Virus record (IMG/VR): IMGVR_UViG_3300033489_000004
Location: 39,403-103,402 of that record
DNA length: 64,000 bases
Reading direction: 5' to 3' (one strand)
Origin: a virus
Below, piece by piece: positions 4,131-52,439 of this stretch. The notes below the pieces were generated by a model. The model searched no databases. It worked only from the letters and a program-made list of their open reading frames with translations, and was not told where the DNA came from. Within the stretch, counting starts at the first letter, position 1; every line of letters begins with the position of its first letter. The position numbers were made by a program, and so were the translations under genes.

Positions 4131-4158
4131 TTATCGGCAAATTAAGCAAAAACCTTTA
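4131..4158 (-). promoter_or_regulatory. sigma28-type promoter
   Basis: minus strand TAAA(GGTT)-N16-GCCGATAA. Confidence 0.7.
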
Positions 4159-4446: not shown

Positions 4447-4474
4447 TTATCGACACAAACAAGGAAAATCTTTA
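4447..4474 (-). promoter_or_regulatory. sigma28-type promoter
   Basis: minus strand TAAA(GATT)-N16-GTCGATAA. Confidence 0.65.
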
Positions 4475-4575: not shown

Positions 4576-4603
4576 TAAAGATTTTTACTGGTTATGCCGA
4601 TAA
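4576..4603 (+). promoter_or_regulatory. sigma28-type promoter
   Basis: TAAA(GATT)-N16-GCCGATAA, about 30 nt upstream of ATG 4635. Confidence 0.7.
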
Positions 4604-5040: not shown

Positions 5041-5214
5041 ATGAAACTAGGATATATTAAAGTAAGGAAAACCAAAAAGGGATACAAAGCAAAATTATTG
5101 AACGGCAAACCTATTATGAAAAATCATTTTGAAGAATTGCCGGGTTTTGTAAATCAAAAATTTGCAAGACGGTATGTGGAAAGTCACTGGGAACTACTGA
5201 AAGAGTATAACTAA
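5041..5214 (+). CDS. small hypothetical protein (MKLGYIKVRK...), below the ORF-track cutoff
   Basis: manual translation; AAGGA upstream. Confidence 0.5.
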   Translation: MKLGYIKVRKTKKGYKAKLLNGKPIMKNHFEELPGFVNQKFARRYVESHWELLKEYN

Positions 5215-5239
5215 AGCTTTTTGCTGAACTTGCCGATAA
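5212..5239 (+). promoter_or_regulatory. sigma28-type promoter
   Basis: TAAA(GCTT)-N16-GCCGATAA upstream of ATG 5273. Confidence 0.7.
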
Positions 5240-5272
5240 TAGAATTAAGAAGCAAATAAGGGGGAAGTAAAA

Positions 5273-5644
5273 ATGGAATTAGCATTTAATATTTTAAAGG
5301 GGGAAGTATTAACAGATATTACTATATCTGAAGATAAAGAAGAAATATTTTTTGAGACAATAGAAGGGGAATGTTTCAAACTATGCCATCTCCAAAACTG
5401 ATGTGAGTCTGTTACCGTAGAAGATATCTGCGGAAATTTAGATGACTTAATTGGAGAGCCTATTCTCCTTGCAGAAATGGCCACTACCCAGACTAATCCA
5501 GAAGGAATAAGTAAAGAATATCAAGATAGCTTTACTTGGACATTTTATAAATTATCAACAAATAAAGGATCAATTACCATAAGATGGTATGGAGAATCAA
5601 ACGGATGTTATTCAGAAGAAGTAGATTTTGTACAAGTAAAATAG
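5273..5644 (+). CDS. paralog of 11449-11808 with an in-frame TGA at 5399-5401 (candidate selenoprotein, otherwise a nonsense pseudogene)
   Basis: manual translation MELAFNILKGEV...[32 protein letters not shown]...[34 protein letters not shown] aligns over its full length with the paralog. Confidence 0.75.
5404..5449 (+). promoter_or_regulatory. candidate bacterial SECIS hairpin
   Basis: CCGTAGA/TCTGCGG stem with AGATA loop starting 20 nt after the TGA; lower stem TGAGTC/GACTTA. Confidence 0.4.
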
Positions 5645-6970: not shown

Positions 6971-8326
6971 ATGGATAAGCCTGTATGTTTTACAGCCAGC
7001 AAGAAGGATTTACAAACAGCTATCTCCAAGGTAAAGTATGGGATTAACAAAAAAACTCCTTTGCCTATCCTTGGAGGTTACTTGTTTGAGGTCAGCGGTG
7101 AGCAAGTCACTGTGAGGTCAACTGATTTAGAGGTTGAGATAGAAACCAGCGTAGAAAATGCACAGCTAAGTTCTGATTATCTTCCTGGAGGACGTTTTGC
7201 AGTTGATGCACGAACGCTTGAGAAGATTTTGAAGACACTGCCCAACGAAGAAATAGAATTGCATTATTGTGCTGAAGAAGAAGATTCTTGGAGTCTTGGA
7301 ATTTCTACGAAGGATACAGCATTGCATATTTCTACTCTTAATGCCGAAGATTTTCCACCTAGCTTGGCACTAGAAAAAATAGATTTTCAAGCTGTTGTAA
7401 CCGAACTAGCTTTAGTCGCCGCACTAACCAGAGTTCTTCCGGCTGTTAGCACAGATGATACACGACAAGTTTTAACCAATGTTTTGCTCAAGTACAAGGA
7501 TATGCACATGCACTTAGTGGCTACAGACAGCTATCGACTTGCACAAGATCAGATAGAAACATATGAGGCTGAAGTATTCACGAACAGGAAACCAGTTGTG
7601 CTTGTTCCAGCATATGCTGTTAGAAAGTTGTTAAAAATCATGGGCAAAGAGGGTGAAGTTCTGATTAAAATAGACTTGGGTGTAACTGGAAGGATAGAAT
7701 TTATCGCTCAAGATGCACGGATGGTAGCAAGACTAGCAGAAGGAGAATTCCCGAAGTACGAACAGCTCTTGCCAGAGTTTTACTATCTGGATGTGCTAGT
7801 CGATAGGCAAGCATTACTGTCCGCTGTCGAACGAGCAAGTGCAATATTGGAAACACCAAGAGCAAATTCTTATAGTGAAAATCCTTACTTTGTTCAACTT
7901 GAAACTGGAGGCACGAAACTGTATTACCCATTGACCATTACAGCGAAGCAAGAGGATAATACAGTTGTAGAAGAAGTCAAAGCCATCGTAGAAGTGAATT
8001 CTCGACTTGCAAAAGAAACAGCCAAAGAAGAAGCTAACTTGCTAAAGTTGGAAAAAAAGTACTCGGCTACAATCGAAGATGATACAGATTTGCTAGTTGG
8101 GTTAGAAATGTCTATGTCTAGATCAAAAAGTAATATTTTGAAAATGAAAGCTATTCAAGATAAAAGTGTCTGTATAGGTTTCAATCCAGATTTTCTACTT
8201 GACGGTCTAAAGGCACTTGAAGGGGATACAATTTCGCTACAACTAATGTCAGCGGAAAATCCTGCCCTGTTGGAATCGACTACAAACTATTCATATCTGT
8301 TAATGCCTGTAAGATTAGGAGGATAA
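6971..8326 (+). CDS. dnaN: DNA polymerase III beta sliding clamp, with an insertion in domain III
   Basis: PILGGYL, STDLE, A.STDDTR.VL, ATDSYRL, RL.EG.FP.Y, GFNPDFLLD.L, C-terminal YLLMPVR. Confidence 0.92.
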   Translation: MDKPVCFTASKKDLQTAISKVKYGINKKTPLPILGGYLFEVSGEQVTVRSTDLEVEIETSVENAQLSSDYLPGGRFAVDARTLEKILKTLPNEEIELHYCAEEEDSWSLGISTKDTALHISTLNAEDFPPSLALEKIDFQAVVTELALVAALTRVLPAVSTDDTRQVLTNVLLKYKDMHMHLVATDSYRLAQDQIETYEAEVFTNRKPVVLVPAYAVRKLLKIMGKEGEVLIKIDLGVTGRIEFIAQDARMVARLAEGEFPKYEQLLPEFYYLDVLVDRQALLSAVERASAILETPRANSYSENPYFVQLETGGTKLYYPLTITAKQEDNTVVEEVKAIVEVNSRLAKETAKEEANLLKLEKKYSATIEDDTDLLVGLEMSMSRSKSNILKMKAIQDKSVCIGFNPDFLLDGLKALEGDTISLQLMSAENPALLESTTNYSYLLMPVRLGG

Positions 8327-8511
8327 AAATGTTAGGAATTATGATCTTGATTGGATGGCATGTGTTTTGTATCGGTATAGCAATAGCTCTTTGGAGTCAA
8401 CTAAACAGAAAAGAGGAATAATGACTAAGAAGAAAACAAGCAGACTAAAAAAGCAAAGAGATTTTTCAATTAAAAAGGTGTAAGAGTACGCTAAAGCAAA
8501 GGAGCTAGTAA

Positions 8512-8769
8512 ATGCCTAGTGAATTAGTAACAAATAAGCGGTATAGCAAGATATTACATCTGGAGTGTTTGCAGCGGGTGTATTTTGAAAAATTGGCCGG
8601 TTACTCTAAAGGATTGAAAGACGTGTTGGCAAAGTCTGAACGAGAGTTACCAGACCGACAAGAGCGGTTAGCGCGTTTTCCACAAGTGATAGATGACGTA
8701 ACAGCCGATTTAAGAGAAGTTACAACCAAATTAAACCTTTGTATTGATTTATATTTGAGAGAAGGTTAA
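8512..8769 (+). CDS. hypothetical coiled-coil protein
   Basis: ORF track; AAGGAG RBS. Confidence 0.55.
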   Translation: MPSELVTNKRYSKILHLECLQRVYFEKLAGYSKGLKDVLAKSERELPDRQERLARFPQVIDDVTADLREVTTKLNLCIDLYLREG

Positions 8770-11448: not shown

Positions 11449-11808
11449 ATGAAAAAATTTGAAGATTTGGTTGGCAAGGTTCTCTCAAACGTGGAGAATA
11501 ATTCAGATGAAATTATTTTCACGCTCGAAACAGGTGAGAAATACAAACTCTATCACAACCAAGATTGTTGTGAGTCTGTTTCTGTCGAAGATGTCATTGG
11601 TGATTTGAATGTTTTGATTGGTTCGCCTATCCTCATGGCGGAAGAAGCATCACAGTCAGAAAATCCCGAAGGCCTCTCTATAGAAGACCAACGGAGTTTT
11701 ACTTGGACATTCTATAAATTGGCAACAATCAAGGGGTATGTCACAATCCGCTGGTATGGCGAAAGTAATGGCTATTACAGTGAGTCTGTTGATTGGGGCG
11801 TTGCCTAA
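11449..11808 (+). CDS. conserved phage protein with HxQDCCExV motif
   Basis: [14 protein letters not shown]...TWTFYKL...[13 protein letters not shown]; paralog at 5273. Confidence 0.8.
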
Positions 11809-13677: not shown

Positions 13678-13705
13678 TAAAGTTTAAGACAAAAAATGCC
13701 GATAA
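13678..13705 (+). promoter_or_regulatory. sigma28-type promoter driving tRNA-Leu
   Basis: TAAA(GTTT)-N16-GCCGATAA ending 7 nt before the tRNA 5' end. Confidence 0.7.
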
Positions 13706-13712
13706 TAGAGTT

Positions 13713-13797
13713 GTCCCAGTGTTGTAATTTGGTAGCTGAGCAGGACTTAAAATTCTGTGGCCATAAGGTCGTGCTGGTTCGAGTCCAGCCTGGGACA
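13713..13797 (+). tRNA. tRNA-Leu(TAA), CCA not encoded
   Basis: acceptor GTCCCAG/CTGGGAC, anticodon arm CAGGA-CTTAAAA-TTCTG, long variable arm, T arm GCTGG-TTCGAGT-CCAGC, discriminator A. Confidence 0.9.
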
Positions 13798-13954
13798 CGA
13801 AAGGAGAAACAACAATGAATATGAGTATTAGTTTATTTGGTTCTGGTGGATATTTTCATATTTGGATATCCTTTAGAAAACAAATTGTTCTATCTATTAC
13901 TATAGATTCTTTGTTTGTGGAACTAGTAGTATTTAATAAAAAAGTAGTAGAAAA

Positions 13955-37066: not shown

Positions 37067-37795
37067 CTATTTTTCTTTTATCTCTTCTATTATACCATCT
37101 AATATATATTCTTGCAATACTTTTTTTGTCATTGCGTGAAGCTGTAAAGATGTCCATGACCATTGCTGTATTTCTCTTTTATGGCACTCGATTGCAAATC
37201 CGGGGTCCTCACCTTGCTGATGATATTGATATCTTACCCCACTTAAATACACTTTTTTACTCATAAGAGCTACCGCTCCCGTCATGTCCACAGGTATTAG
37301 TACGTTTCTAATAATTGGCTGTATATGTTTGAAATGATTTTTTTGGGCTCCCCTTAAATTCATTATGTTTCCAATATGGTTTGGTTTATCTTTTCTAGCG
37401 AAGTGCAAGTCATTCCAAACTAAGGCCCCAATAAAATCCTTTTCAAAGCTCAAAAGATTTTTAACAATTTCAGGGACTACTAACACATCACTATCCAAAC
37501 TAAACATATAATCAAAATCATTGTCTCTGAAAGCTATGTCCAACATCTTGTTTCTTATCTTAACAAGACTATGATATCTTCCACTTGTGCGCTCTGCCGT
37601 GGACTCTACTTCATTGTATTCATAGACTTCCCCATATTCCTCCAACAAGGCAATAATGCTCTTATCATTATTATTTGATAAAAATATTGTTTCCTTGTTA
37701 GGATAGTCTATTTTAGATATAGCTCTAAGAAAATAGGACAACAACCATTTTTTGTTGTGAATAGGCGACATAATCACAATTCTAGGATATCCCAT
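37067..37795 (-). CDS. GT-A glycosyltransferase
   Basis: IRN, FSLDSDV, VDMTGA..L, GED.GF. Confidence 0.8.
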   Translation of the reverse strand: MGYPRIVIMSPIHNKKWLLSYFLRAISKIDYPNKETIFLSNNNDKSIIALLEEYGEVYEYNEVESTAERTSGRYHSLVKIRNKMLDIAFRDNDFDYMFSLDSDVLVVPEIVKNLLSFEKDFIGALVWNDLHFARKDKPNHIGNIMNLRGAQKNHFKHIQPIIRNVLIPVDMTGAVALMSKKVYLSGVRYQYHQQGEDPGFAIECHKREIQQWSWTSLQLHAMTKKVLQEYILDGIIEEIKEK

Positions 37796-52218: not shown

Positions 52219-52273
52219 TTATTATATTACCACAGCACTTTTTATTTGTCAAGTATTTTTTATAAAAACTTTA

Positions 52274-52368
52274 GGAAGCTGGTAGGAATCGAACCTACTA
52301 AGACTGTATCAACTAGTTTACTCAGCCTACCACCTGTCGGCTCCATTTGCCGTTCGGATACAGCTTCC
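52274..52368 (-). tRNA. atypical tRNA-like RNA (8-bp acceptor, long extra arm, distorted anticodon arm)
   Basis: GGAAGCTG/CAGCTTCC, D arm TCCG/TGGA, T arm GTAGG-TTCGATT-CCTAC. Confidence 0.6.
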
Positions 52369-52410: not shown

Positions 52411-52439
52411 ATTATACCAAAAAACAAAATTACTGTCAA
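52411..52439 (-). promoter_or_regulatory. consensus sigma70 promoter for the tRNA-like RNA
   Basis: minus strand TTGACA-N17-TATAAT with TG. Confidence 0.75.

Follow-up and report, generated by a model that had tools for sequence, protein, structure and literature searches.

A probable selenoprotein gene of the DUF7448 family on a tailed phage

Known selenoprotein systems and the phage locus

The selenoproteins catalogued in the literature that we searched belong to cells or to a few eukaryotic viruses, and none to phages. The poxvirus homologs of glutathione peroxidase are selenoproteins of eukaryotic viruses: they are virus-encoded and need the Sec machinery of the host, as the phage gene described here would. 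However, they use a eukaryotic SECIS together with SBP2/eEFSec and are captured host genes of known function, whereas the phage gene has a bacterial-type hairpin inside the open reading frame (ORF) and belongs to a virus-specific family, DUF7448. Papers worded in terms of phage or viral selenoproteins dealt with eukaryotic viruses or human selenium status, none of them with a phage. In the literature searched we found no published report of a phage selenoprotein and no mention of DUF7448 in connection with selenoproteins; phages also go unmentioned in BSepDB and deep-Sep, the bacterial selenoprotein resources of 2025-2026, and in a 2026 review.

The bacterial SECIS is located within the ORF (PMC1802603). 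The phage gene resembles the SelB-read selenoprotein genes of bacteria, the prototype of which is E. coli fdhF, in having an in-frame UGA at the position where homologs have Cys, in the stem-loop that lies 16-37 nt beyond the UGA and whose small apical loop has a G in one of its first two positions, and in the occurrence of Sec and Cys forms within one family. It differs from them in that it is carried by a tailed phage without Sec machinery and in that the DUF7448 hairpin lies in several codon registers, depending on the lineage. Anonymous Sec/Cys families, such as the hypothetical proteins GOS_A, GOS_B, and GOS_C, were described in the GOS survey (PMC2398784). The logic is shared, namely environmental DNA in which a TGA aligned to Cys goes together with a SECIS-like hairpin; however, the GOS families were treated as cellular and are mostly UxxC/CxxU proteins with thioredoxin-like folds (PMC2398784), whereas DUF7448 has a vicinal U-C pair in an all-beta viral fold; the comparison goes by these descriptions. 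The tRNA-SeC gene predicted in Basilisk-like Bacillus phages (PMC6145125) also ties phages to the Sec system, but what was predicted there is a tRNA, and no selenoprotein gene was described, whereas the phage studied here has a candidate selenoprotein gene and no tRNA-Sec.

The window, that is, the whole 64-kb stretch of DNA analysed here, comprises the last 64 kb of the 103,402-bp IMG/VR record IMGVR_UViG_3300033489_000004 from an uncultured virus. CheckV puts the completeness of this record at 57%, and the tape-measure protein, sliding clamp, and helicase that it encodes identify the source as a tailed phage. On its + strand, a gene of 123 codons (5273-5644) extends from an ATG at 5273 to a terminal TAG at 5642-5644. 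A first-pass annotation, made from the sequence alone, had described this gene as intact except for one TGA, as preceded by a ribosome-binding site, and as having the TGA on the first Cys of a CC motif. Reading the sequence together with its translation confirmed all of this: the TGA at 5399-5401 is the sole internal stop, GGGGGA is present at 5260-5265, 7 nt 5' of the ATG, and the readthrough product contains HLQN-U-CESV where a paralog encoded by the same phage has HNQDCCESV. Joined across the UGA, the product matches the Pfam model PF24240 (DUF7448) over residues 10-119 with 82.8 bits (cut-off, 27) and phrog_2650, a family of unknown function, with an E value of 2.5e-38. All 15 family-invariant residues are kept, 13 of them downstream of the UGA.

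We estimate at roughly 85% the probability that 5273-5644 is a phage-encoded selenoprotein gene in which residue 43 is Sec, made with host machinery; the estimate draws on sequence comparison and on the predicted fold of the product. When a ribosome reaches the UGA at 5399-5401, host SelB carrying Sec-tRNA(Sec) would bind the downstream hairpin (5415-5433), Sec would be inserted as residue 43, and translation would run on to the TAG at 5642. The resulting DUF7448 protein would have 123 residues, an all-beta fold, and a vicinal Sec-Cys pair (U43-C44). The phage would contribute the message and the hairpin, and the host would contribute tRNA(Sec), SelA, SelB, and SelD; both the dependence on SelB and the insertion of selenium are what we infer for this gene. 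In such a phage selenoprotein family, host recoding machinery would be exploited, and host range and fitness would be tied to selenium availability. Standard gene callers systematically split UGA genes of this kind: with translation table 11, 5273-5644 falls into ORFs of 42 aa (5273-5401) and 55 aa (5477-5644). By pointing to one Cys of the CC motif, the Sec position would offer a first clue to what DUF7448, a large viral family of unknown function, does, and a natural SECIS of about 20-30 nt in a small, easily expressed gene would make a handy reporter of SelB specificity.

The hairpin behind the UGA and its recurrence in the family

The SECIS-type stem-loop of the window gene (5404-5449, + strand) was delineated by folding and assessed by synonymous shuffles, covariation, and a covariance model. 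Its upper stem consists of 7 bp (CCGUAGA at 5415-5421 with UCUGCGG at 5427-5433) and closes on the apical loop AGAUA (5422-5426), which is separated from the UGA by 20 nt. The lower stem, in which 5404-5409 pairs with 5444-5449, is a single-sequence prediction, and the comparative support described below covers the upper stem only. The minimum free energy (MFE) is -13.9 kcal/mol, with a z score of -2.1 relative to dinucleotide shuffles; the hairpin alone has -9.4 kcal/mol. The bacterial SECIS consensus specifies a loop of 3-9 nt with G in position 1 or 2, an upper stem of 4-16 bp, a distance of 16-37 nt from the UGA, and an MFE of -7.5 kcal/mol or lower (PMC13188914). Judged by these published values and not by bSECISearch, the window element agrees with the consensus on every count: its loop is 5 nt, its stem 7 bp, the G is at loop position 2, the spacing is 20 nt, and the energy of -9.4 to -13.9 kcal/mol lies within the limit. 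The G in its loop precedes an A, where the commoner next base is G or U. Thus, the hairpin is present as the first-pass annotation had drawn it (7-bp upper stem, AGATA loop, 20-nt spacer, and lower stem), and its remark that the Cys paralog lacks the stem was also correct: the matching stretch of the paralog folds differently, with a z score of -0.13.

The combination of UGA and hairpin is not peculiar to the window: 37 further distinct relatives share the UGA with the window gene, nearly all with a hairpin behind it. They were collected in several ways. An initial DNA pattern, TGA followed by back-translated CESVxVED, led to L054, a divergent and G+C-richer homolog in a viral contig whose TGA occupies the same codon, and among 51 loci collected by protein similarity was one more phage with TGA there, present in four samples. 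A second pattern, in which only TGA-TGY and an FTWTFY motif 126-144 nt downstream were fixed and the hairpin zone was left free, returned further lineages from viral contigs as well as 104 stretches from metagenome contigs and 25 from genome contigs. Two loci, L073 and L210, matched patterns by chance and do not belong to the family. After sorting by frame and family context, distinct DUF7448 homologs had TGA at this codon in 38 cases and Cys (TGT/TGC) in 47, the Cys forms coming from the similarity search and from out-of-frame pattern matches. When the TGA was moved to the second, equally conserved Cys codon as a control, the pattern matched no member of the family in viral contigs. In a protein library with 4,170 DUF7448 cluster representatives (E <= 0.001), the CC motif is present in 94 of the 99 top representatives with the FTWTFY anchor; three of the remaining five were mislocated by the script. 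Because many independent assemblies share the TGA, sequencing error is irrelevant for the family as a whole, although this is not strictly so for the window contig.

A few members of the collection deserve comment. L172 (JAMOVR010000225.1), a 1.9-kb contig of a "Heimdallarchaeota" metagenome-assembled genome (MAG), encodes the same Sec-form protein as the metagenome contig L157; it most likely belongs to a phage and was binned into the archaeal MAG by mistake. The metagenome contig Ga0193951_1048374 (L070) has an extra in-frame TAA 22 codons past the UGA, probably because the copy is dead or was misassembled. Another sequence, L052, looks frameshifted; thus, broken family members exist at a low rate.

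The stability of the hairpin zone was compared between the two forms by re-drawing synonymous codons with matched third-position composition over codons +3 to +17. Sec forms fold more stably than their recodings (mean z score, -1.75), whereas Cys forms do not (+0.30; Mann-Whitney p = 1.4e-11). A simplified SECIS scan, with a hairpin energy of -5 kcal/mol or lower and the same loop rules, was passed by 31 of 38 Sec forms versus 5 of 47 Cys forms. In the commonest register (columns 14-21 and 25-32 of the 54-nt alignment; 27 Sec forms), 93.5% of cells are paired and the loop is GUG or GUU; these commonest loops match the G[G|U]N core of the bSECIS consensus. Double-sided changes number 24 in this register versus 6.4 expected, a count reached in none of 500 shuffles, with compensatory changes in five of eight pairs. 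Slid controls gave 10-51% pairing, and in Cys forms these columns reach 59% pairing, with double-sided changes not in excess. The register of the window gene is shared by six Sec forms (the window, L071, L128, L164, L055, and L157); their upper stem is 97.6% paired, with compensatory changes at two pairs, versus 64% pairing at these columns in Cys forms. The hairpin lies in several codon registers among the Sec lineages, and no one covariance test spans all sequences; a signal that resides in structure fits this diversity.

A large clade of Sec forms (L040, L057, L067, L076, L080, and others) has the motif Y-x-x-D-U-C-A/E-S-C-D-I/V-V-D-I. An extra Cys at +4 forms a CxxC with the second Cys, Tyr replaces the usual His at -4, and Val, encoded by GUN in the hairpin loop, stands at +7 where Cys forms have Glu. 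Since the loop is a Val codon at a position where Cys forms have Glu, the hairpin signal has also shaped the protein; the RNA signal and the protein sequence of this clade appear to have shaped each other.

Alternative readings of the UGA codon

When Sec forms were compared in pairs downstream of the hairpin, the median dN/dS was 0.12 and the highest value 0.31; pairs that include the window gene range from 0.07 to 0.29. Thus, the codons 3' of the UGA are under purifying selection. Together with the recurrence of the TGA in 38 distinct sequences, independent homologs among them with co-varying hairpins at the same column, and with the agreement with the SECIS consensus, this came out in favour of the selenoprotein interpretation that the first-pass annotation had put forward. 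Global recoding of TGA, as in genetic codes 4 and 25 or in late-gene recoding, was considered and rejected: TGA terminates 12 of 109 long ORFs of the phage. No other credible readthrough was found in the 103 kb, where the remaining 15 TGA-joined frames look non-coding. In the phage that carries L054, an HNH endonuclease gene (7982-8611, - strand) directly upstream of the Sec-form gene ends on an ordinary TGA.

The two ORFs that table 11 yields (5273-5401 and 5477-5644) could be taken at face value, with the UGA as a true stop that releases a 42-residue peptide and the C-terminal half made from an internal ATG at 5477. This is the least probable of the readings that we considered, because the 25-codon stretch from the UGA to this ATG is conserved as protein in all Sec forms, with G54, D58, L59, and P63 nearly invariant, no ribosome-binding site is present 5' of 5477, and the product is predicted by AlphaFold2 (pLDDT, 90.7) to form one compact all-beta domain that extends across the UGA. 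Only slightly more credible, and still very improbable, is a pseudogene or an assembly error, that is, a change from TGT or TGC to TGA in a redundant copy while the paralog at 11449 does the work. A single base change indeed turns either Cys codon into TGA, the phage has a Cys paralog that could in principle make the window Sec copy dispensable, and broken members such as L070 (TAA) and L052 (apparent frameshift) do occur. However, the rest of the window gene is intact with every invariant residue kept, and a matching SECIS would not accompany a random nonsense mutation. The window hairpin is far more stable than its synonymous recodings (z score, -3.19; none of 300 recodings as stable). When a covariance model was trained on the other five members of its register, with the window left out, positions 5399-5452 scored 70 bits, versus 52 bits for the best Cys form and 35.8 bits for its own Cys paralog. 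Relative to L071, the nearest Sec form in sequence around the UGA, the window gene is 93% identical in DNA over the 18 codons from the UGA on, with the same codon at 14 of 16 shared residues, versus 75% identity and the same codon at 17 of 28 in the highly conserved C-terminal core; dN/dS for this pair is 0.16. In the complete 43.9-kb phage with terminal repeats that carries L054, the Sec form is the sole DUF7448 gene, and therefore a decaying duplicate is an unlikely explanation for the family.

Recoding of the UGA without SelB, by hairpin-stimulated near-cognate readthrough (tRNA-Trp or tRNA-Cys) or by a suppressor tRNA, would make residue 43 an ordinary amino acid. We hold this to be improbable, if less so than a stop or a defect. 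On the one hand, the hairpin, the conservation of the UGA, and the constraint on the codons after it show that translation continues and not which residue is inserted, and the phage has an odd tRNA-like RNA at 52273-52368. On the other hand, the UGA is always found in place of the conserved Cys and of no other codon, a pattern that is the classic Sec/Cys signature. To our knowledge, no hairpin-driven mechanism for reading UGA as Cys exists in bacteria. None of the phage tRNAs carries a UCA anticodon, no UCA triplet occurs in the tRNA-like RNA, and both the loop content and the distance from the UGA match the SelB-type SECIS consensus (PMC13188914).

For the preferred reading, insertion of Sec, the machinery would have to come from the host. 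Neither the 103-kb genome nor 25 other loci yielded a tRNA-Sec in ARAGORN and Rfam searches, and no SelB is encoded on five phage records; therefore, the phage would have to depend on host machinery. Two matches to the tRNA-Sec model RF01852 (46.4 and 39.6 bits) proved to be ordinary tRNA-Leu(UAA) genes, which are located at 37601-37684 of the record (- strand) and at 13713-13798 of the window (+ strand). The first match scores 59.5 bits on the general tRNA model and the second is assigned there at 40.2 bits; they come to just below the tRNA-Sec threshold because of their long variable arm. Genes for tRNA-His, tRNA-Pro, and tRNA-Glu are also on the phage, upstream of the window. The tRNA-like RNA (52273-52368, - strand) is 96 nt long and was called tRNA-Thr(ggt) by ARAGORN; its acceptor stem is 8 bp, its T stem is 5 bp and bears a UUCGAUU loop, and its extra arm is long. 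It is preceded by a near-consensus TTGACA-N17-TATAAT promoter at about 52411-52439. Although tRNA-Sec is its best Rfam family, we rejected this assignment, given a score of 21 bits (gathering score, 47) and the lack of a UCA triplet. Without this triplet it cannot read UGA by normal pairing, and its participation in recoding is even less likely than the conditional Sec/Cys system considered below.

Several observations bear on the host. Relatives of the phage helicase are 26-33% identical and come from phages of many phyla, and at the DNA level similarity extends over only about 100 nt of the conserved gene core in Bacillus phages. One of the Sec forms, L188, is on a phage-like 9.6-kb contig with SbcC-like and RecT-like genes that was binned into a Desulfobacterales MAG, and this MAG contains a full-length SelB (389 bits). 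The presence of SelB is weakly consistent with reading the UGA as Sec, by way of the binning of this contig.

The Cys paralog, the promoter motif, and the fold

What is special to the window phage is that a Sec copy and a Cys paralog occur together. The paralog (11449-11808, + strand), which contains HNQDCCESV, belongs to the same family and has no hairpin; its product is 59% identical to that of the UGA gene (E value, 2e-46). Among 73 full-length proteins, the tree of which is poorly resolved, a single clade unites 23 Sec forms while about seven more are scattered; eight changes between Cys and Sec are required on the best tree, with weak support, and a single origin of the Sec forms is compatible with the strongly supported branches. 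The window Sec copy is placed among Cys forms, and the paralog groups with the Cys form L010 (support, 99). Since they are in different subclades, the two are old paralogs and not products of a recent duplication. The suggestion of the first-pass annotation that the phage might make a Sec version while keeping a Cys copy fits these observations: both genes are in the phage, they are old paralogs, and the phage has no Sec machinery of its own.

The Cys paralog may serve when selenium or the Sec machinery is missing, although our confidence in this role is low. A broader proposal, that phages encode their own selenoproteins and that the window phage runs the Sec/Cys pair as a conditional system, is in our judgement doubtful. 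Under it, the UGA copy behind a sigma-28-type promoter would give a catalytically superior selenoenzyme only where Sec machinery is active and selenium is available, the old Cys paralog would cover the other cases, and the UGA would act as a read-out of the selenium status of the host.

The first-pass annotation had also assigned the gene a promoter of its own at 5212-5239. A motif is indeed there, namely a perfect match to the sigma-28 (FliA/SigD) type, TAAA-N16-GCCGATAA, on the + strand 33 nt before the start codon; as a sigma-70 promoter, the same stretch gives no match. With at most one mismatch, this motif occurs five times in the window (4131-4158 and 4447-4474 on the - strand; 4576-4603, 5212-5239, and 13678-13705 on the + strand; four perfect and one with a single mismatch) versus 0.48 expected, and none of 100 shuffles reached five. 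Going by the consensus, 5212-5239 would be an active promoter, and the motif type hints at a flagellated host.

The AlphaFold2 model of the UGA-gene product superposes on the DUF7448 protein of Bacillus phage BigBertha with a TM score of 0.87, and the fold is widespread among phages and giant viruses. A Foldseek search of the PDB with this model returned nothing at E <= 0.001, and a profile search of PDB sequences gave no matches. The nearest structure by VIA-align is 8owu, a PIM7-like polymorphic-toxin immunity protein, with a Z score of 6.6 that is below the level deemed meaningful (rmsd, 2.9 over 90 residues; 7% identity); 5v77, an uncharacterised Neisseria protein, has a Z score of 5.8, below the level that goes beyond a common arrangement. 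With the Cys paralog as query, a protein atlas returned hypothetical proteins only, and no Pfam families were found among nine neighbouring genes.

Mammalian thioredoxin reductase has a vicinal Cys-Sec redox centre in the sequence GCUG. The adjacent Sec and Cys predicted for the phage protein resemble it, and a selenenylsulfide is conceivable, but the likeness goes no further: Sec comes before Cys in the phage protein (U-C), its pair lies within the chain and not at the C terminus, and the folds are unrelated. In known families, Sec stands in for a catalytic or redox Cys (PMC2398784), and for this reason the reactive residue is likely to be the first of the two Cys in the CC motif. That U43 is a reactive nucleophile or redox centre is our guess, held with low confidence, and cycling of U43-C44 through a selenenylsulfide is speculation. 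In two library proteins, P0057 (513 aa) and P0136 (273 aa), DUF7448 is fused to other domains, an RtcB RNA-ligase domain and a YopX domain; these fusions are single cases and possible functional leads.
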